The position numbers were made by a program, and so were the translations under genes. A stretch of DNA of 64,000 nt from assembly GCF_056746865.1 (NCBI RefSeq), contig NZ_CM163382.1; one strand, given 5' to 3'. Position 1 is the first letter of the stretch. Each line of letters begins with the position of its first letter. The notes beneath the pieces are model-generated. The model was not told where the DNA came from. It did no database searches and was given only the letters and a program-made list of their open reading frames with translations. Below, in pieces: positions 18,895 through 26,635 of the stretch.

Positions 18895-19839
18895 ATGAGT
18901 ACACTTGAACCTGCTGCCCAGCCAAAACCCTTTAAGCTGTGGCTGTCGCAGTTGCAAATGAAGCATGGGCGCAAACTGGTGATTGCGCTGCCCTATATCT
19001 GGCTAATCCTGCTGTTTCTGCTGCCATTTCTGATTGTCTTTAAAATAAGCCTGGCGGAGATGGCGCGCGCCATTCCACCTTATACCGAACTGATGGAGTG
19101 GGCTGACGGGCAACTTTCCATCACTCTTAATCTCGGTAATTTCCTGCAACTGACCGACGATCCGCTCTATTTCGATGCTTATCTCCAGTCGCTACAGGTG
19201 GCGGCGATTTCGACTATTTGCTGTTTACTGATCGGCTATCCGCTGGCGTGGGCGGTGGCGCACAGTAAGCCTTCGACCCGTAATATCTTATTGCTACTGG
19301 TGATCCTGCCGTCGTGGACCTCGTTTCTGATTCGCGTTTATGCCTGGATGGGAATATTAAAAAATAACGGCGTACTGAATAATTTTCTGCTGTGGCTGGG
19401 GGTTATCGACCAGCCGCTGACCATTCTGCATACCAATCTGGCCGTTTATATCGGCATTGTTTATGCCTACGTGCCGTTTATGGTTCTGCCGATCTACACC
19501 GCCTTGATTCGTATTGATTATTCGCTGGTGGAAGCGGCACTGGATCTCGGCGCAAGACCGCTGAAAACGTTCTTTACTGTGATCGTGCCGCTGACCAAAG
19601 GCGGGATTATTGCCGGATCGATGCTGGTGTTTATCCCGGCTGTGGGCGAGTTTGTGATCCCGGAACTGCTCGGTGGCCCGGACAGCATCATGATCGGGCG
19701 CGTGCTGTGGCAGGAGTTCTTTAACAACCGCGACTGGCCGGTGGCCTCGGCGGTAGCGATCATCATGTTGCTGCTGCTAATTGTGCCGATAATGTGGTTC
19801 CACAAACACCAGCAAAAAAGCGTGGGAGAACACGGATGA
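18895..19839 (+). CDS. potH: Putrescine ABC transporter permease PotH
   Basis: ORF translation, 6-TM permease; overlaps potI. Confidence 0.9.
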   Translation: MSTLEPAAQPKPFKLWLSQLQMKHGRKLVIALPYIWLILLFLLPFLIVFKISLAEMARAIPPYTELMEWADGQLSITLNLGNFLQLTDDPLYFDAYLQSLQVAAISTICCLLIGYPLAWAVAHSKPSTRNILLLLVILPSWTSFLIRVYAWMGILKNNGVLNNFLLWLGVIDQPLTILHTNLAVYIGIVYAYVPFMVLPIYTALIRIDYSLVEAALDLGARPLKTFFTVIVPLTKGGIIAGSMLVFIPAVGEFVIPELLGGPDSIMIGRVLWQEFFNNRDWPVASAVAIIMLLLLIVPIMWFHKHQQKSVGEHG

Positions 19840-20681
19840 ATAATTTACCGGTAGTTCGTTCGCCCTGGCGGATTGTGATTTTGCTGCTGGGCTTCACCTT
19901 TCTCTACGCGCCAATGCTGATGCTGGTTATCTATTCGTTTAACAGCTCGAAGCTGGTGACGGTGTGGGCCGGCTGGTCAACGCGCTGGTATGGTGAATTA
20001 TTGCGCGATGACGCGATGATGAGTGCGGTTGGTTTAAGCCTGACAATTGCGGCATGTGCGGCGACGGCGGCGGCGATCCTCGGGACGATTGCGGCGGTGG
20101 TGCTGGTGCGCTTTGGCAAGTTTCGCGGATCAAATGGTTTTGCCTTTATGATCACCGCGCCGCTGGTGATGCCAGATGTCATCACGGGCTTGTCGCTATT
20201 GTTGTTATTCGTCGCGCTTGCTCATGCCATTGGCTGGCCTGCGGACCGCGGTATGCTCACCATCTGGCTGGCGCATGTCACTTTCTGTACGGCTTATGTG
20301 GCAGTCGTTATTTCGTCGCGTCTGCGGGAACTGGATAGCTCGATAGAAGAAGCAGCGATGGATCTTGGTGCGACGCCACTGAAAGTGTTTTTCGTCATTA
20401 CGCTACCGATGATCATGCCCGCGATCATTTCTGGCTGGTTACTAGCTTTTACTTTGTCGCTTGATGATCTGGTTATCGCCAGCTTTGTTTCCGGGCCGGG
20501 AGCCACCACGTTACCGATGCTGGTCTTTTCTAGCGTGCGGATGGGGGTGAATCCGGAAATCAACGCCCTGGCAACATTGATCCTCGGTGCGGTCGGAATT
20601 GTCGGATTTATCGCCTGGTATCTGATGGCTCGCGCAGAAAAACAGCGGATACGCGACATCCAGCGTGCAAGACGTGGCTGA
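19836..20681 (+). CDS. potI: Putrescine ABC transporter permease PotI (281 aa)
   Basis: ORF 19794-20681 with start at MNNLPVVRSPWRIVILLLGF. Confidence 0.9.
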   Translation: MNNLPVVRSPWRIVILLLGFTFLYAPMLMLVIYSFNSSKLVTVWAGWSTRWYGELLRDDAMMSAVGLSLTIAACAATAAAILGTIAAVVLVRFGKFRGSNGFAFMITAPLVMPDVITGLSLLLLFVALAHAIGWPADRGMLTIWLAHVTFCTAYVAVVISSRLRELDSSIEEAAMDLGATPLKVFFVITLPMIMPAIISGWLLAFTLSLDDLVIASFVSGPGATTLPMLVFSSVRMGVNPEINALATLILGAVGIVGFIAWYLMARAEKQRIRDIQRARRG

Positions 20682-20740
20682 AGACACTAAAATTTGCCAA
20701 CCTGGCTACATAATGCCGCGCATGTCGCGGCATTGTTTTC

Positions 20741-21229
20741 ATGGAAGACGAAACGTTGGGATTTTTTAAGAAAACATCTTCATCTCATGCTCGCCTGAAT
20801 GTGCCTGCGCTGGTGCAGGTGGCGGCGCTCGCCATTATTATGATCCGTGGCCTCGACGTGCTGATGATTTTCAATACGCTGGGCGTGCGCGGTATTGGCG
20901 AGTTCATTCATCGCAGCGTACAAACCTGGAGTTTAACGCTGGTCTTTTTAAGCAGTCTGGTGTTGGTTTTTATTGAGATCTGGTGTGCGTTTTCACTGGT
21001 GAAAGGGCGTCGCTGGGCGCGCTGGCTGTATCTGTTGACACAAATCACGGCCGCAAGTTACTTGTGGGCGGCTTCGCTGGGGTATGGTTATCCGGAGCTG
21101 TTCAGCATTCCCGGTGAATCAAAACGTGAAATCTTCCATAGCCTGATGCTGCAGAAGCTGCCGGATATGCTCATCCTGATGCTGCTGTTCGTTCCCTCGA
21201 CCAGTCGGCGGTTCTTCCAGTTGCAATAA
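20741..21229 (+). CDS. ybjO: Inner membrane protein YbjO (162 aa)
   Basis: ORF translation, TM helices; gene order. Confidence 0.75.
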   Translation: MEDETLGFFKKTSSSHARLNVPALVQVAALAIIMIRGLDVLMIFNTLGVRGIGEFIHRSVQTWSLTLVFLSSLVLVFIEIWCAFSLVKGRRWARWLYLLTQITAASYLWAASLGYGYPELFSIPGESKREIFHSLMLQKLPDMLILMLLFVPSTSRRFFQLQ

Positions 21230-21269
21230 TGTGTATAATCGTCGCCCCTGATGATGTGAAGGTCAATGT

Positions 21270-22397
21270 ATGCAGTGCGCACTTTACGACGCGGGTCGCT
21301 GTCGTTCCTGTCAGTGGATAACGCAGCCGATTCCAGAGCAACTCTCCGCTAAAACCGCCGATCTTAAAAATCTGCTCGCCGACTTTCCGGTTGAGGAATG
21401 GTGCGCGCCGGTGTCAGGCCCGGAACAAGGGTTTCGTAATAAAGCCAAAATGGTGGTGAGTGGTAGCGTTGAAAAACCACTGCTCGGTATGCTGCATCGA
21501 GACGGCACACCGGAAGACCTTTGTGACTGCCCGCTTTATCCTGCCTCATTTGCGCCCGTTTTTGCGGCACTGAAACCATTTATTGCTCGCGCCGGGCTTA
21601 CGCCTTACAACGTGGCGCGCAAACGTGGCGAACTGAAATACATTCTGCTGACCGAAAGCCAGAGCGATGGCGGCATGATGCTGCGCTTTGTACTGCGTTC
21701 TGAAACCAAACTGGCGCAACTGCGTAAGGCGCTGCCGTGGTTACAGGAACAACTGCCGCAGCTAAAAGTTATTACCGTCAATATTCAGCCGGTACATATG
21801 GCGATTATGGAAGGGGAGACGGAGATCTACCTGACCGAACAACAGGCGCTGGCGGATCGTTTTAACGATGTGCCGCTGTGGATCCGTCCGCAAAGTTTCT
21901 TCCAGACTAATCCGGCGGTCGCCAGCCAGCTTTACGCTACCGCGCGCGACTGGGTGCGGCAACTACCGGTAAACCATATGTGGGATCTGTTCTGCGGCGT
22001 GGGGGGCTTTGGTTTACACTGCGCGACGCCTGACATGCAGTTAACCGGGATCGAAATTGCACCAGAGGCCATTGCCTGTGCGAAGCAGTCAGCCGCTGAA
22101 CTGGGCTTAACGCGTTTGCAATTTCAGGCGCTGGACTCCACTCAGTTTGCTACCGCCCAGGGGGAAGTGCCGGAGCTGGTGCTGGTTAACCCGCCGCGCC
22201 GCGGCATTGGTAAACCGCTATGTGATTATCTCTCAACGATGGCACCGCGTTTTATCATCTACTCCAGCTGTAACGCCCAAACCATGGCGAAAGATATCCG
22301 CGAGCTGCCGGGTTATCGCATCGAACGGGTACAGCTTTTCGACATGTTCCCCCACACCGCGCATTACGAAGTGCTGACACTGCTGGTAAAAATGTAA
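21270..22397 (+). CDS. rlmC: 23S rRNA m5U747 methyltransferase RlmC/RumB (375 aa)
   Basis: ORF translation [20 protein letters not shown] (Fe-S cysteine cluster) and SAM-methyltransferase C-terminus. Confidence 0.9.
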
Positions 22398-22446
22398 ATA
22401 CATCACTCAAATCAATATCACTCCGGCATACATCCATTCTAAATAA

Positions 22447-22486
22447 TAACCGTGATCGATTAATATTAACCGATCGATCATGGTTA
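22447..22486. promoter_or_regulatory. 40-bp imperfect palindrome (14-bp arms TAACCGTGATCGAT / ATCGATCATGGTTA) upstream of the PTS gene; candidate operator or junction relic
   Basis: 13 of 14 arm positions complementary around a 12-nt AT-rich spacer; contains several GATC sites. Confidence 0.35.
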
Positions 22487-22691
22487 TATATTGCGCTATT
22501 TTTGCAAATCAAATCACAAATAATCAAATAAGATCTTTAAATGAACTGTTTTGATTACTAAAGTGCGTTTACCGAATACCTGCAGAGGCATCGCTTAGCG
22601 AAAAATAAAAAATATCTGAAGCATTATTAACGTCAGCAGAAGGTTCATGCATTGACAACGGAAATGTACGCTTATGGAGGGCGTTCCGACG

Positions 22692-24017
22692 ATGTTTGCC
22701 AAATTCATAGATGTTATTCAAACGTTTTTAACCGAACCCGCAATATTAATTGGTTTGCTGGTGGGCATTGGTTATGCCCTTGATAAGAAATCGCCAATAA
22801 AAATTATTACCGGTATGGTCAGCGCCATGGTGGGATTAATGATGGTGTTATTTGGTGGGTTTCAATTCTCCGCAACATTTAAACCGGTAGCAGAGGCTGT
22901 AAGTAAAGCCTATGGCGTTCATGGTTATTTAATGGATTCCTACGCCATGAAAGCCGCAACGCAAATTGCGTTGGGGGATAATTTTGGTTACGTAGGTTAT
23001 GTTTTTGTTCTGGCATTTTTTACCAACCTGTTACTGGTACTGTTTGGTCGCTATACCGGTGCCAAAGGGATATTCCTGACCGGTAATACTGGGGTGTCAC
23101 ATTCGCAGGCCGTATTATGGTTAATTGTTTTTTGGTTAGGATTTAGTTGGACCACGTCGATTATTATCGCCGGGGTATTAACGGGTATATTCTGGGCTTT
23201 TTCCACCACGCTCATTGTTAAACCTATCGCCAAAGTGACTAAAGATGCTGGTTTTACTATTGCCCATAACCAGATGTTGGGATTGTGGTTTTTCTCCAAA
23301 TTCGCCCATAAATTTGGCGACCCGGAAAAGCACGATGCTGAAAACCTGAAACTTCCCGGCTGGCTGGCGATTTTTAACCACAACGTGACGGCTATCGCCA
23401 TTGTGATGACGCTGTTTGTGGGCGGTTTCCTGCTCTCCACGGGCATTGATAACGTCCAGATGATGGCGAAAGGTAAACCCTGGTACATCTATATCATCAA
23501 TCTGGGCTTACAGTTCTCCATGTACATGGTCATTCTGTTGCAGGGCGTGCGCATGATGGTCGGTGAAATTAACGGTTCTTTTAAAGGCTGGCAGGATCGC
23601 TTTATTCCTAACGCCATTCCCGCCGTCGATGTCGCCGCACTGTTGCCTTTTTCACCCAATGCCGCAACGTTAGGTTTTGTCTTCTGTACTTTTGGCACCA
23701 TTTTCTCGATGGGTATCTTATTGCTGATCCACAGCCCCATTATGGTATTGCCAGGCTTTGTACCTTTATTTTTCTCAGGCGGCCCGATTGGTGTATTAGC
23801 AAACCGAATGGGCGGATACCGCTCCGTAATTATCTGTACCTTCTTGCTGGGTATTATTCAGACCTTCGGTACGGTGTGGGCTATTCCTTTAACCGGGCTT
23901 GCTGAAAATGGCGTCGGCTGGACAGGAATATTTGACTGGGCAACCGTATGGCCTGCTATTTGTGAAGTTCTGAAATTTATCGCTGCAACATTCCATCTTG
24001 GTCCTTACGCGGGATAA
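22692..24017 (+). CDS. PTS EIIC component, L-ascorbate (UlaA/SgaT) family, about 441 aa
   Basis: ORF 22674-24017; multi-TM protein resembling UlaA from its N-terminus onward; GGAGGG ribosome-binding site before the ATG at 22692; not in K-12 at this position as I recall. Confidence 0.7.
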   Translation: MFAKFIDVIQTFLTEPAILIGLLVGIGYALDKKSPIKIITGMVSAMVGLMMVLFGGFQFSATFKPVAEAVSKAYGVHGYLMDSYAMKAATQIALGDNFGYVGYVFVLAFFTNLLLVLFGRYTGAKGIFLTGNTGVSHSQAVLWLIVFWLGFSWTTSIIIAGVLTGIFWAFSTTLIVKPIAKVTKDAGFTIAHNQMLGLWFFSKFAHKFGDPEKHDAENLKLPGWLAIFNHNVTAIAIVMTLFVGGFLLSTGIDNVQMMAKGKPWYIYIINLGLQFSMYMVILLQGVRMMVGEINGSFKGWQDRFIPNAIPAVDVAALLPFSPNAATLGFVFCTFGTIFSMGILLLIHSPIMVLPGFVPLFFSGGPIGVLANRMGGYRSVIICTFLLGIIQTFGTVWAIPLTGLAENGVGWTGIFDWATVWPAICEVLKFIAATFHLGPYAG

Positions 24018-24038
24018 TTCACTATTAAGGGTTTAAAA

Positions 24039-24359
24039 ATGAAAGATACAATTAATATTTTGTTTGTCTGTGGTTATGGTGTCGGTAGTAGCGTGATGTT
24101 ACAAACGGTTGTTAAAAAAGCGCTGACGAAATATGAGTTCAAAGTTGAAATGGAACATACCGCCGCAGGCGAGGTGGGAGGCTTTACCGATTGGGCGGAT
24201 ATTTTTGCTATTTCCAAAAAATTACTCGACGTGGTCAGCCTGGACCCAAAACACGGGCAATATCTGATTCCGATTGAAAATATTATGGATGGTGAAACGA
24301 TTGGCGCGCAGATTTATGAAGTCGTCCAGCAGCATTTCCCTCATCTGCTAAATAAATAA
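24039..24359 (+). CDS. PTS EIIB component, ascorbate (UlaB-like) family (106 aa)
   Basis: ILFVCGYGVGSS phospho-cysteine loop near the N-terminus; tightly linked downstream of the EIIC gene. Confidence 0.7.
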   Translation: MKDTINILFVCGYGVGSSVMLQTVVKKALTKYEFKVEMEHTAAGEVGGFTDWADIFAISKKLLDVVSLDPKHGQYLIPIENIMDGETIGAQIYEVVQQHFPHLLNK

Positions 24360-24371
24360 AAGGGATGAGCA

Positions 24372-25853
24372 ATGAAAGCCATTATTCTCCTGTTCGATAG
24401 CCTGAACAAAAGATATTTACCCCCGTATGGCGATTTATTGACAAAAGCAGAGAACTTCCAACGCCTGGCGGCACATGCCGCCACCTTTGAAAACAGCTAC
24501 GTCGGGAGTATGCCCTGCATGCCCGCCCGGCGAGAGCTGCATACCGGGCGATGCAACTTCCTGCACCGGGAGTGGGGGCCGTTAGAACCGTTTGACGACT
24601 CCATGCCGGAGCTGCTTAAAAAGGCGGGGATCTATACCCACCTGATAAGCGATCATTTGCATTACTGGGAAGATGGCGGCGGGAATTATCATAATCGCTA
24701 CAGTTCATGGGAGATTGTGCGCGGCCAGGAAGGCGATCACTGGCAGGCGAGCGTTGCGCAACCGCCTATTCCCGAGGTGCTAAGGGTGCCACAAAAGCAG
24801 ACCGGCGGCGGTGTTTCTGGCCTGTGGCGTCATGACTGGGCCAACCGGGAATATATTCAGCAGGAAGCGGATTTTCCACAAACCAAAGTCTTTGATGCGG
24901 GTTGTGCTTTTATCCACAAAAATCACGCGGAAGATAACTGGTTATTGCAGGTCGAAACGTTTGATCCGCACGAGCCGTTTCACACAACGCAAGAGTACCT
25001 TTCGTTGTATGAGGATGACTGGAGCGGGCCGCATTATGACTGGCCGCGTGGTCGGGTGCTGGAAAGCGACGAGGCCGTGGAGCATATCCGCTGCCGCTAT
25101 CGCTCGCTGGTGTCGATGTGCGATCGCAACCTGGGGCGCATTCTGGACCTGATGGATGAGCACGATCTGTGGCGAGACACCATGCTGATTGTCGGCACCG
25201 ATCACGGTTTTTTACTCGGTGAGCATGGCTGGTGGGCGAAAAACCAGATGCCTTATTACAACGAGGTAGCGAATAACCCGCTGTTTATCTGGGATCCGCG
25301 CAGCGGCGTAAAAGGCGAACGTCGTCAGGCGTTGGTGCAGATGATCGACTGGGCACCTACGCTGTATGACTTTTTTCAGCAGCCGGTGCCGCCCGATGTG
25401 CAGGGGCAACCACTTGCGAAAACGGTCAGCCACGATGAACCGGTACGCAGCGCGGCGATGTTTGGTGTCTTTAGTGGTCATGTCAACGTAACCGATGGGC
25501 GTTATGTGTATATGCGTGCCGCGCTGCCGGGTCGTGAGGATGATATTGTTAACTACACATTAATGCCGATTAAAATGAACAGCCGCTATCCGGTGGATGA
25601 GATGCGGACTTTATCGCTGGCCCCTCCGTTTCGTTTTACCAAAGGGTTACAGGTGTTACGCATCCCGGCGCAGGAGAAATATAAGGGGCTGAATCAGTTT
25701 GGGCATTTGCTGTTCGATCTGCAAAACGATCCGCAGCAGTTGCATCCTATTGATGATGATGCGATCGAGGCCCGGATGATCGCGTTGCTGATCCAGTTAA
25801 TGAAAGATAATGATGCGCCGCCAGAGCAGTTTCAGCGCCTGGGGTTAGCGTAG
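24372..25853 (+). CDS. Sulfatase-family (alkaline-phosphatase superfamily) enzyme, Cys-type with formylglycine motif, no signal peptide (493 aa)
   Basis: Motif C-M-P-A-R-R-E-L-H-T-G-R at residues 48-59 fits the C-x-P-x-R sulfatase signature; N-terminus MKAIILLFDSLNKRY lacks a signal sequence; third gene of the PTS operon. Confidence 0.65.
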   Translation: MKAIILLFDSLNKRYLPPYGDLLTKAENFQRLAAHAATFENSYVGSMPCMPARRELHTGRCNFLHREWGPLEPFDDSMPELLKKAGIYTHLISDHLHYWEDGGGNYHNRYSSWEIVRGQEGDHWQASVAQPPIPEVLRVPQKQTGGGVSGLWRHDWANREYIQQEADFPQTKVFDAGCAFIHKNHAEDNWLLQVETFDPHEPFHTTQEYLSLYEDDWSGPHYDWPRGRVLESDEAVEHIRCRYRSLVSMCDRNLGRILDLMDEHDLWRDTMLIVGTDHGFLLGEHGWWAKNQMPYYNEVANNPLFIWDPRSGVKGERRQALVQMIDWAPTLYDFFQQPVPPDVQGQPLAKTVSHDEPVRSAAMFGVFSGHVNVTDGRYVYMRAALPGREDDIVNYTLMPIKMNSRYPVDEMRTLSLAPPFRFTKGLQVLRIPAQEKYKGLNQFGHLLFDLQNDPQQLHPIDDDAIEARMIALLIQLMKDNDAPPEQFQRLGLA

Positions 25854-25861
25854 AGAGGTGA

Positions 25862-25900
25862 TGTTGCCGGAGTGGGCGAACACCCACTCCGGCAAATGAA
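25862..25900. terminator. Bidirectional hairpin between the sulfatase gene and convergent artJ
   Basis: GCCGGAGTGGG CGAACA CCCACTCCGGC inverted repeat. Confidence 0.5.
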
Positions 25901-25903
25901 TAC

Positions 25904-26635
25904 TTACTGCGGGAACCACTGGTCATTGATTTTCTGATATGTACCGTCAGCTTTAATTGCTGCCAGCGCATTATTCAGTTTTTCCAGCAGAGCTTTGTTA
26001 TCCGGACGTACAGCGATACCCAGGCCGGTGCCGAAGTACTGCGGATCGGTCACTTTCTCAGTCGCAACGCCCAGTTGTGGATTGGTTTTCAGCCATTCGT
26101 TTACCACCGCTGTGTCACCAAATACCCCATCAATACGACCATTTTTCAGGTCGATAAAGGCATTCTGATAACTGTCATAGGAGACAGTTTTCACTTCCGG
26201 GTGCTGATCCTGAATATATTTCTGGTGCGTGGTGCCGTTTTCCATCCCAATACGTTTGCCTTTCAGATCGGCAAACGTTTTGTAGGTATCTTTTTTGGCA
26301 ATCACGACGGCTGAGTTTTCATAGTAGGGCGTGGTAAACGATACCTGTTTGCTACGCTCCGGCGTGATATCCATACCGGAGATTACGGCGTCATATTTTC
26401 TGAATTTCAGTGACGGGATCAGGCTGTCGAACGCGTGATTAGTAAAAGTACATTCTGCCTGCATTTGTTTGCACAAGGCTTTTGCCAGGTCGATATCAAA
26501 GCCGACAATCTCATTATTAGCACCTATAGATTCAAAGGGGGGATAGGTGGCTGAAACGCCAAAATTGATTTTCTCTGCGGCAGAAGCACCGAAAGTAAAG
26601 GAAGCAAGTAAAGCGGCAAGAACTAACTTTTTCAT
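25904..26635 (-). CDS. artJ: Arginine ABC transporter periplasmic binding protein ArtJ (243 aa)
   Basis: ORF 25904-26686; start at MKKLVLAALLASFTFGASA (signal peptide). Confidence 0.9.
   Translation of the reverse strand: MKKLVLAALLASFTFGASAAEKINFGVSATYPPFESIGANNEIVGFDIDLAKALCKQMQAECTFTNHAFDSLIPSLKFRKYDAVISGMDITPERSKQVSFTTPYYENSAVVIAKKDTYKTFADLKGKRIGMENGTTHQKYIQDQHPEVKTVSYDSYQNAFIDLKNGRIDGVFGDTAVVNEWLKTNPQLGVATEKVTDPQYFGTGLGIAVRPDNKALLEKLNNALAAIKADGTYQKINDQWFPQ

Follow-up and report, generated by a model that had tools for sequence, protein, structure and literature searches.

A PTS-linked cytoplasmic sulfatase between rlmC and artJ of Escherichia coli: a possible route for sulfated L-ascorbate into the ula pathway

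Which compound would Escherichia coli import through a phosphotransferase system (PTS) and then strip of sulfate in its cytoplasm? The question is raised by a 64,000-nucleotide stretch of DNA (hereafter the window; RefSeq assembly GCF_056746865.1, contig NZ_CM163382.1) in which genes for a PTS EIIC, a PTS EIIB and a formylglycine (fGly)-type sulfatase stand between rlmC and artJ. An original prediction, made from the letters of this DNA, had taken the three genes to serve the catabolism of a sulfated sugar or sugar acid. Our analysis supports that proposal and narrows it, with moderate confidence, to sulfated L-ascorbate, because in other bacteria the same module is repeatedly embedded in operons for L-ascorbate use (ula). 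We regard it as very probable that the island couples a PTS to a cytoplasmic sulfatase and that this enzyme desulfates a carbohydrate imported in sulfated form. That this carbohydrate is sulfated L-ascorbate, feeding the ula pathway, we judge to have about an even chance, given the gene neighbourhoods described below.

A three-gene island in place of a short K-12 spacer

The three open reading frames are intact, lie on the + strand and are separated by gaps of 21 and 12 bp, so that the close packing and common orientation described in the original prediction hold. To their left is rlmC (21270-22397, + strand) and to their right artJ (25904-26635, − strand), whose stop codon faces that of the convergent sulfatase gene. 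In K-12, rlmC and artJ are indeed adjacent, as the original prediction had it, with 198 bp between them that contain a REP element. BLAST of this K-12 junction against the window, read with the K-12 annotation, shows homology ending at about 22387 and restarting at about 25897, leaving a segment of about 3.5 kb (22388..25896) that has no K-12 counterpart. Strain KK05-19 matches the window base for base across the island, and RefSeq labels its three products 'PTS sugar transporter subunit IIC', 'IIB' and 'sulfatase'. The annotation of that strain contains neither an EIIA gene nor a maturase gene over window positions 1-49896, as anticipated. The GC content had been described as host-like; this is true of the sulfatase gene, which shares the 0.50-0.57 of the flanks, and untrue of the upstream spacer and the EIIC and EIIB genes, at 0.39-0.48.

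An L-ascorbate-family transporter distinct from UlaA

The EIIC gene runs from 22674 (or 22692) to 24017 on the + strand and encodes 447 or 441 aa; at the alternative start, 22692, GGAGG precedes the ATG, and the annotation of O157:H7 Sakai uses the 441-aa form. The sole solved relatives of the protein are UlaA of Pasteurella and of E. coli, matched over the full length (5ZOV, E 2e-94; 4RP8, E 7e-93). With these structures as the best matches in the PDB, and with PF03611 (the EIIC-GAT/UlaA fold) assigned to the orthologues, its earlier placement in the ascorbate family is secure. The protein scores above the cut-off of the NCBIfam equivalog NF009550 (953 against 583 bits) and falls below the cut-offs of both UlaA models (NF006919, 321 against 380 bits; NF009549, 130 against 890), being 37% identical to UlaA. 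These scores and the substituted vitamin C contacts described next suggest that it is not a UlaA orthologue. The EIIB gene (24039-24359, + strand) encodes a 106-aa protein of the PTS_IIB type. Its active-site Cys11 lies in the loop FVCGYGVGSS, which aligns with the CGNGMGSS loop of 3CZC, and UlaB models match it weakly.

From the literature (PMC6048161) we took the residues with which E. coli UlaA contacts vitamin C, and aligned 20 sulfatase-linked EIICs to them. Every one of the 20 retains the contacts Y87, H194, D314 and F362, together with R288 and the pivots G58 and G286. Five other contacts are replaced: S59G, I136A/T/S, Q139A/S and Q195N in all 20 proteins, and H135N in 19 (the remaining one, from locus L026 of our set, has Q). 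The window protein carries S59G, H135N, I136T, Q139S and Q195N. All replacements but H135N introduce a smaller side chain. The pattern is consistent with a larger pocket that would hold an ascorbate-like ring bearing an extra substituent. We call this fit moderate, since a family member without linkage to a sulfatase retains H194, R288 and D314 as well.

Related modules sit within ula operons

Members of the sulfatase family were found in at least 594 species in one scan. Sulfatases at least 61% identical to that of the window have an EIIC (57-99% identical) and an EIIB next to them, with the exception of locus L021, which is on a truncated contig; those at 59% identity or below never do. The neighbourhoods were compared in a set of 20 non-enterobacterial loci that carry the module, with linkage counted within 10 kb. 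In Firmicutes the module typically reads DeoR-EIIC-EIIB-sulfatase-EIIA_2, and its EIIA scores best against the UlaC model. Two protein clusters (P0042 and P0073) have an EIIA domain fused to the C terminus of the sulfatase. A maturase adjoins the module in seven of the 20 loci, as a formylglycine-generating enzyme (FGE; PF03781, E 8e-80) in two Bacillaceae (L020 and L026) and as a radical-SAM anaerobic sulfatase-maturing enzyme (anSME; model NF010321, 487 bits against a cut-off of 441) in five anaerobes (L017, L018, L028, L097 and L099). The EIIA fusion and the adjacent maturases argue for a real fGly enzyme that works with a PTS. They also match the original prediction that the E. coli proteins draw an EIIA and a maturase from elsewhere, since the orthologous loci carry partners of just the kinds foreseen, a UlaC-like EIIA_2 and either FGE or anSME. 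One locus (L097) additionally has a gene for a TauE-family anion exporter beside the module.

In seven of the 20 loci (L013, L020, L021, L024, L026, L027 and L029) the module has genes of the ascorbate-6-phosphate pathway no more than 10 kb away. The most complete arrangement, in Neobacillus niacini, is EIIA-EIIC-EIIB-sulfatase-UlaG-EIIB'-UlaD-UlaE-UlaF on one strand, with FGE divergent upstream; here all four catabolic enzymes exceed their NCBIfam cut-offs (UlaG, 653 against 306; UlaD, 327 against 250; UlaE, 441 against 200; UlaF, 362 against 257). Bacillus sp. FJAT-50079 has DeoR-UlaG-UlaD-UlaE-UlaF followed by two tandem EIIC-EIIB-sulfatase modules, EIIA and FGE, and in Bacillus sp. SD088 the module is divergent from DeoR-EIIA-UlaG-UlaD-UlaE-UlaF. 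A Clostridium metagenome-assembled genome (MAG) has UlaG-EIIA-EIIC-EIIB-sulfatase-x-UlaF-UlaE and then a transketolase and a transaldolase-like gene, and ula genes also lie near the module in an Oscillospiraceae MAG and in Olsenella. The UlaG proteins of module-bearing loci are 55-73% identical to E. coli UlaG. Because the arrangements differ among Bacilli, Clostridia, Oscillospiraceae and Olsenella, we take the linkages to be independent. The E. coli EIIC is nearest (68-69%) to the EIICs of these ula-embedded modules. A sulfatase gene 'inserted' in the ula regulon of Sebaldella termitidis was recorded in a 2011 study of UlaG, where it went uninterpreted (PMC3219644).

On these grounds the three genes of the island may supplement the L-ascorbate (ula) regulon. 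The phosphoryl group would reach EIIB by way of EI, HPr and an EIIA of the UlaC type borrowed from elsewhere, and EIIC and EIIB would import sulfated L-ascorbate, most plausibly L-ascorbate-2-sulfate, a well-known natural ester and metabolite, with phosphorylation at C6. The cytoplasmic sulfatase would then strip the sulfate from the phospho-intermediate to leave L-ascorbate-6-phosphate, which would enter the UlaG, UlaD, UlaE and UlaF pathway. We infer that the sulfatase acts on the phosphorylated form and that the E. coli island uses UlaC as its EIIA. L-ascorbate-6-phosphate is both the inducer of UlaR and the substrate of UlaG (PMC5934670). The ula genes are present in 5425 of 5426 complete E. 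coli genomes, so that the enterobacterial module could have shed its own EIIA and regulator; as its product would feed UlaR and the Ula enzymes, Enterobacteria would need only the three genes.

Two ula-linked loci (L021 4140-5159 and L029 6290-7327) encode an unannotated protein of 339-345 aa beside the sulfatase that has no NCBIfam match. Both have split transketolase genes, and L029 also has a fructose-6-phosphate-aldolase-like gene. Within the ula operon of Bacillus sp. FJAT-50079, the second EIIC-EIIB-sulfatase module (L026 4692-7908) is divergent in sequence: its EIIC is 32% identical to that of the window and has Lys at UlaA position 139, and its sulfatase is 463 aa long. This second module may serve a different ascorbate ester.

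A cytoplasmic formylglycine sulfatase with family-specific features

The third gene (24372-25853, + strand) encodes a Cys-type fGly (S1) sulfatase of 493 aa that carries an invariant CMPARRELHTGR motif. The signature noted earlier, C49-M-P-A-R-R-E-L-H-T-G-R60 (encoded at 24516-24551), survives careful alignment: 19 homologues show no variation at C49, P51, R53, T58, G59 and R60, and in 89 these residues are at least 97% conserved. Pfam assigns the protein to PF00884 (Sulfatase, E 1.7e-27) together with SGSH_C. The Pfam match starts at residue 4, the first modelled β-strand occupies residues 2-8, and D9 is the invariant Asp at the metal-ligand position, leaving no space for a signal peptide, in agreement with the cytoplasmic location first proposed. 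An AlphaFold2 (AF2) model (pLDDT 80.6, pTM 0.88) matches S1 structures at a probability of 1.00, if distantly (TM-score ~0.65, 15-19% identity). Besides C49 and P51, the residues D9, R53, H95, H200, D277, H278 and K290 do not vary, and these seven fall at catalytic positions in the alignments. Taken together, alignment and model indicate an S1 enzyme of the fGly type. E. coli matures Cys-type sulfatases without a dedicated gene, and maturation of Cys49 there would rely on host systems.

By profile, the arylsulfatases SpAS1 and SpAS2 come nearest among solved proteins, with S1_11 N-acetylglucosamine (GlcNAc)-6-sulfatases next. A suggested kinship to YidJ proved weak: the structures labelled 'putative sulfatase YidJ', 2QZU (E 3.5e-7) and 3B5Q (E 5.5e-7), match the C-terminal part and rank well below about 30 other sulfatases, and we rejected a YidJ-type assignment as too distant. 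The family itself has no solved structure, and its invariant SDHLHYWEDGG loop, which contains the likewise invariant Asp94, has no counterpart in solved structures. More than 110 positions are conserved at 97% or above across the 89 sequences. This conservation is unusually deep, the E. coli protein being 54-59% identical to sequences from Chloroflexi, Planctomycetes, Actinobacteria and Lokiarchaeota MAGs (loci L015-L094).

Just 16 positions distinguish PTS-linked from ABC-linked members of the family. Members linked to a PTS have acquired R226, K436 and H123, along with a Gly-rich insertion at about 143-149 (Q143, G145, G147 and S149), basic residues and a loop that would fit an extra phosphate on the substrate. 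With the EIIA-sulfatase fusion and the conserved gene order, these gains lend support to the earlier proposal that the enzyme acts on an imported PTS product.

Other features bear on whether the ester that is cleaved is a sulfate. An fGly-dependent enzyme could instead hydrolyse some other ester of an ascorbate-like scaffold, be it a monoester of phosphate or phosphonate or a diester. The profile search ranks phosphonate monoester hydrolases (PMHs) with SpAS1 and SpAS2 among the best solved relatives, Asp94 aligns where the canonical Lys of a Lys-x-His pair is expected, and linkage to FGE or anSME cannot tell sulfatases from PMHs, since both use fGly. We consider such an activity highly improbable all the same: CxPxR...TGR and all of D9, R53, H95, H200, D277, H278 and K290 are invariant, the TauE exporter adjacent to one module is of a sulfite/sulfate type, and we know of no natural phosphonate or phosphodiester of ascorbate.

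Sulfated ascorbate or another sulfated carbohydrate

Several observations weigh against ascorbate as the scaffold, or against parts of the proposed route. Most modules, 13 of the 20, stand alone with no ula gene within 10 kb, although some of their contigs are short. Sulfatases of the wider family (55-59% identical, with the >110 invariant positions) lie beside sugar and not ascorbate genes, and the core chemistry of the family may be on a sulfated sugar. Some of the EIIC residues retained mark the family at large and not a substrate, H194, R288 and D314 being found in the outgroup EIIC L022_13 too, and the loss of a canonical sulfate-binding Lys to Asp94 falls in a low-confidence region of the sulfatase model. 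The resemblance of the upstream region to the ulaA promoter, described below, is post hoc, has different spacing and is only a lead. The identity of the substrate is drawn from gene neighbourhood, and the proposal assumes that ascorbate-2-sulfate reaches useful levels in the gut.

The same design, with PTS import and cytoplasmic desulfation, could serve a different sulfated compound, such as a hexose, a hexosamine or a uronate set free from mucin, from glycosaminoglycans or from polymers of plants or algae, and yield a common sugar phosphate. This would suit the presence of GlcNAc-6-sulfatases, among them mucin-desulfating S1_11 enzymes, in the best solved matches, and the neighbours of the 55-59% identical relatives, which are sugar ABC transporters, GH3 glycosidases, ROK/AraC sugar-type regulators and further sulfatases. 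It would also suit the modules that have no ula genes near them, a mannose (Man)-family PTS with a sulfatase that adjoins one module, and the pairing of a cellobiose-type PTS with a sulfatase in an island of Streptococcus pneumoniae (PMC3283741). The solved sulfatase matches are distant, however, at 15-19% identity and a TM-score of ~0.65, and the transporter belongs to the L-ascorbate family with UlaA as its only solved relatives. In seven loci from different lineages, moreover, genes for UlaG, UlaD, UlaE and UlaF are found no further than 10 kb from the module, several times in the same operon, and these enzymes handle only intermediates derived from ascorbate-6-phosphate. We therefore hold a different sulfated carbohydrate to be unlikely, though a serious competitor, and retain sulfated L-ascorbate as the preferred substrate.

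The mannose-family locus (L097 219-7154) comprises EIIAB, EIIC and EIID with a 454-aa sulfatase, a GntR gene, the anSME and the TauE-family exporter, and is a second kind of PTS-coupled sulfatase locus.

Distribution, history and selection

Of the 5426 complete E. coli genomes, 566 carry the island, O157:H7 among them. All copies are on the chromosome, and each locus examined has it between rlmC and artJ. Two deep alleles exist, one in 146 genomes at 99% identity or more to the window and the other in 412 at about 90.7%, including O157:H7 and O145:H28. The rlmC-artJ site also holds a three-gene island in Salmonella enterica, S. arizonae and an Escherichia cryptic clade, and identity to Salmonella is similar for the island (78-83%) and its flanks (76-87%). 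Since Salmonella has the same site with flank-like divergence, the simplest history would be ancestral presence followed by loss from most E. coli, including K-12. Deletion from K-12 and acquisition had at first been considered equally likely; the first of these is now the more likely, and we rejected recent horizontal acquisition into E. coli on account of the site shared with Salmonella and the cryptic clade and of the flank-like divergence. In Enterobacter the same three genes are found at another site, beside an arylsulfotransferase gene. That neighbour (L011 4466-5881) encodes an arylsulfate sulfotransferase (PF05935), which like the sulfatase is an enzyme of sulfate esters, and is divergent from the module.

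The flanking genes potH, rlmC and artJ (18895-22397 and 25904-26635) show 92-96% nucleotide identity to O157 or K-12, with synonymous divergence (dS) of 0.19-0.40. This flank divergence is unusually high, which suggests that the deep haplotypes reach beyond the island.

The ratio of nonsynonymous to synonymous substitution (dN/dS) is 0.009-0.05 for all three island genes, whether the two deep E. coli alleles are compared with each other or with Salmonella, and is similar for rlmC and artJ. The island genes are real and under strong purifying selection. A few E. coli and Shigella copies are decaying (genomes H6 and H20; proteins P0033 and P0040), with IS1 in the EIIC gene or shortened sulfatase calls; the N-terminally truncated calls, of 378 and 355 aa, lack the Cys motif.

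Could the E. coli island then be a cryptic remnant, deprived of its own EIIA and regulator, unexpressed or not energized, and on its way out? Retention in only about 10% of E. coli genomes, the interrupted and truncated copies and the want of a strong consensus promoter upstream would all be expected of one. Yet dN/dS is as low as in the neighbouring housekeeping genes rlmC and artJ, the three-gene form without EIIA or regulator is conserved together with its upstream core in Escherichia, Salmonella and, at its other site, Enterobacter, and expression of the Salmonella gene STM0884 is regulated in microarrays (PMC2639726). A remnant is highly improbable on this evidence, and a functional module dependent on the ula regulon remains our preferred interpretation.

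Candidate control elements

The core of the spacer upstream of EIIC is conserved in E. coli, Salmonella and the differently sited Enterobacter copy. Alignment of the upstream regions reveals a CRP-like site common to all three (22503..22518, + strand; TGCAA-N6-TCACA by our reading, with a perfect right half). It is followed by an imperfect palindrome that is a candidate operator (22520..22558, + strand; ATAATC-N27-GATTAC, with 18-nt arms at 22521-38 and 22540-57). The words ATAATC and GATTAC also occur at the K-12 ulaA promoter, there around a 7-bp spacer, a resemblance spotted after the fact. A weak sigma-70 promoter may lie at 22536..22564 on the + strand (-35 TTTAAA at 22536-41, a 17-bp spacer, -10 TAAAGT at 22559-64), and the CRP-like site would then stand near -61. 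The promoter and terminator scan, for which this candidate falls under the threshold, returned nothing for the upstream spacer. These elements suggest control by CRP and possibly UlaR in E. coli.

About 200 bp 5' of EIIC is a GATC-rich inverted repeat (22446..22487, no strand assigned; 15-nt arms, 93% complementary) that is kept in Escherichia and Salmonella and is not present upstream of the Enterobacter copy. It contains three GATC sites in the window and more in the O157 allele, and GATC is over-represented across the window in general. The repeat could be a regulator site or a methylation-sensitive element. Between the stop codons of the sulfatase gene and artJ lies a terminator-like, GC-rich hairpin of 13 bp (25864..25895, no strand assigned; -32.3 kcal/mol, z -5.9) with no clear U-tract on either strand. 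No RNA family was matched at E <= 1 when island and leader were scanned against Rfam.

STM0884 is the Salmonella EIIC gene, as we confirmed by finding a published site inside it. Its expression is regulated in microarrays and clusters with genes co-regulated with Salmonella pathogenicity island 2 (SPI-2) (PMC2639726). The published site, an intragenic sigma-54 binding site, maps to L009 7317-7334; we dropped it as a candidate element for E. coli, as it is not conserved in the window.

Elsewhere in the window, between ybjP and ybjQ (30500-33100), strains differ in a second segment, which contains a pentapeptide-repeat pseudogene at 31077-32315. In O157:H7 Sakai the hypothetical genes ECs0949 and ECs0950 occupy the equivalent place.

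Novelty and implications

A literature search found nothing linking ascorbate sulfate, or the rlmC-artJ locus, to a PTS or a bacterial sulfatase. By locus tag, the open-access literature yielded a single mention, in a single-nucleotide polymorphism (SNP) panel. The components belong to known families and a PTS-sulfatase linkage has already been seen in S. pneumoniae (PMC3283741); the papers searched describe neither this module nor the ascorbate-sulfate pathway proposed for it. In its broadest form the proposal is of a widespread vitamin-C-sulfate pathway, in which gut Firmicutes, Salmonella and about one-tenth of E. coli would import the ester through a dedicated ascorbate-family PTS and desulfate a sulfo-phospho intermediate. 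We advance this tentatively, at somewhat less than even chances.

If it is correct, ECs0940-0942 of O157:H7 Sakai and STM0884 and its neighbours in Salmonella, at present only 'PTS IIC / IIB / sulfatase', acquire a testable role, and the textbook ula pathway gains an oxidation-stable sulfated vitamin C that animals make and excrete. A sulfatase working on a sugar-acid phosphate would be a new enzymological case and, to our knowledge, the first sulfatase specialized for a PTS-phosphorylated substrate. Enterobacteria would be borrowing EIIA, inducer logic and catabolic enzymes from the ula regulon. The island would also be a strain-variable metabolic trait that sets O157:H7 and Salmonella apart from K-12.

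Comparison with known systems

The closest known system is the ula system of E. coli itself (UlaABC, UlaG/D/E/F and UlaR). The island shares with it the EIIC-GAT/UlaA fold and a UlaB-type EIIB, and the orthologous loci add a UlaC-like EIIA and DeoR-family regulators; its predicted product, ascorbate-6-phosphate, is the substrate of UlaG, and in several taxa the module is embedded in ula operons. It differs in an EIIC that is 37% identical to UlaA with five vitamin C contacts replaced, in the added sulfatase and, in E. coli, in having no EIIA, regulator or catabolic genes of its own.

PTS genes are also genetically coupled to a putative sulfatase in a strain-variable accessory island of a second host-associated bacterium, S. 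pneumoniae, which encodes a ROK protein and a cellobiose-type PTS (PMC3283741). That PTS is of the Lac/cellobiose and not the L-ascorbate family.

Among solved enzymes, SpAS1 and SpAS2 of Silicibacter pomeroyi (4UPI and 4UPL) and the S1_11 GlcNAc-6-sulfatases (5G2V and 7P24) have the same α/β core and fGly motif as the island sulfatase. They are separated from it by the low identity and TM-score given above and by the SDHLHYWEDGG loop and Asp94, which are specific to the island's family.

Two further systems invite comparison. The AtsT/AtsA2/AtsB system of Bifidobacterium breve reportedly serves N-acetylglucosamine-6-sulfate (work of Egan et al. in 2016). It is reported to import a small sulfated carbohydrate intact and to desulfate it in the cytoplasm with an fGly sulfatase, as proposed here, and to have a dedicated anSME alongside; it would differ in its non-PTS transporter, its unphosphorylated sugar, its substrate and its sulfatase subfamily. 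Mammalian arylsulfatases A and B act as ascorbate-2-sulfate sulfohydrolases. They are lysosomal enzymes of the secretory pathway with broad specificity and no phosphorylated substrate, and the human 4-sulfatase 1FSU matches the island sulfatase only distantly (E 2e-9). They are, like it, S1 formylglycine sulfatases, and they are able to cleave the enol-sulfate of ascorbate-2-sulfate.

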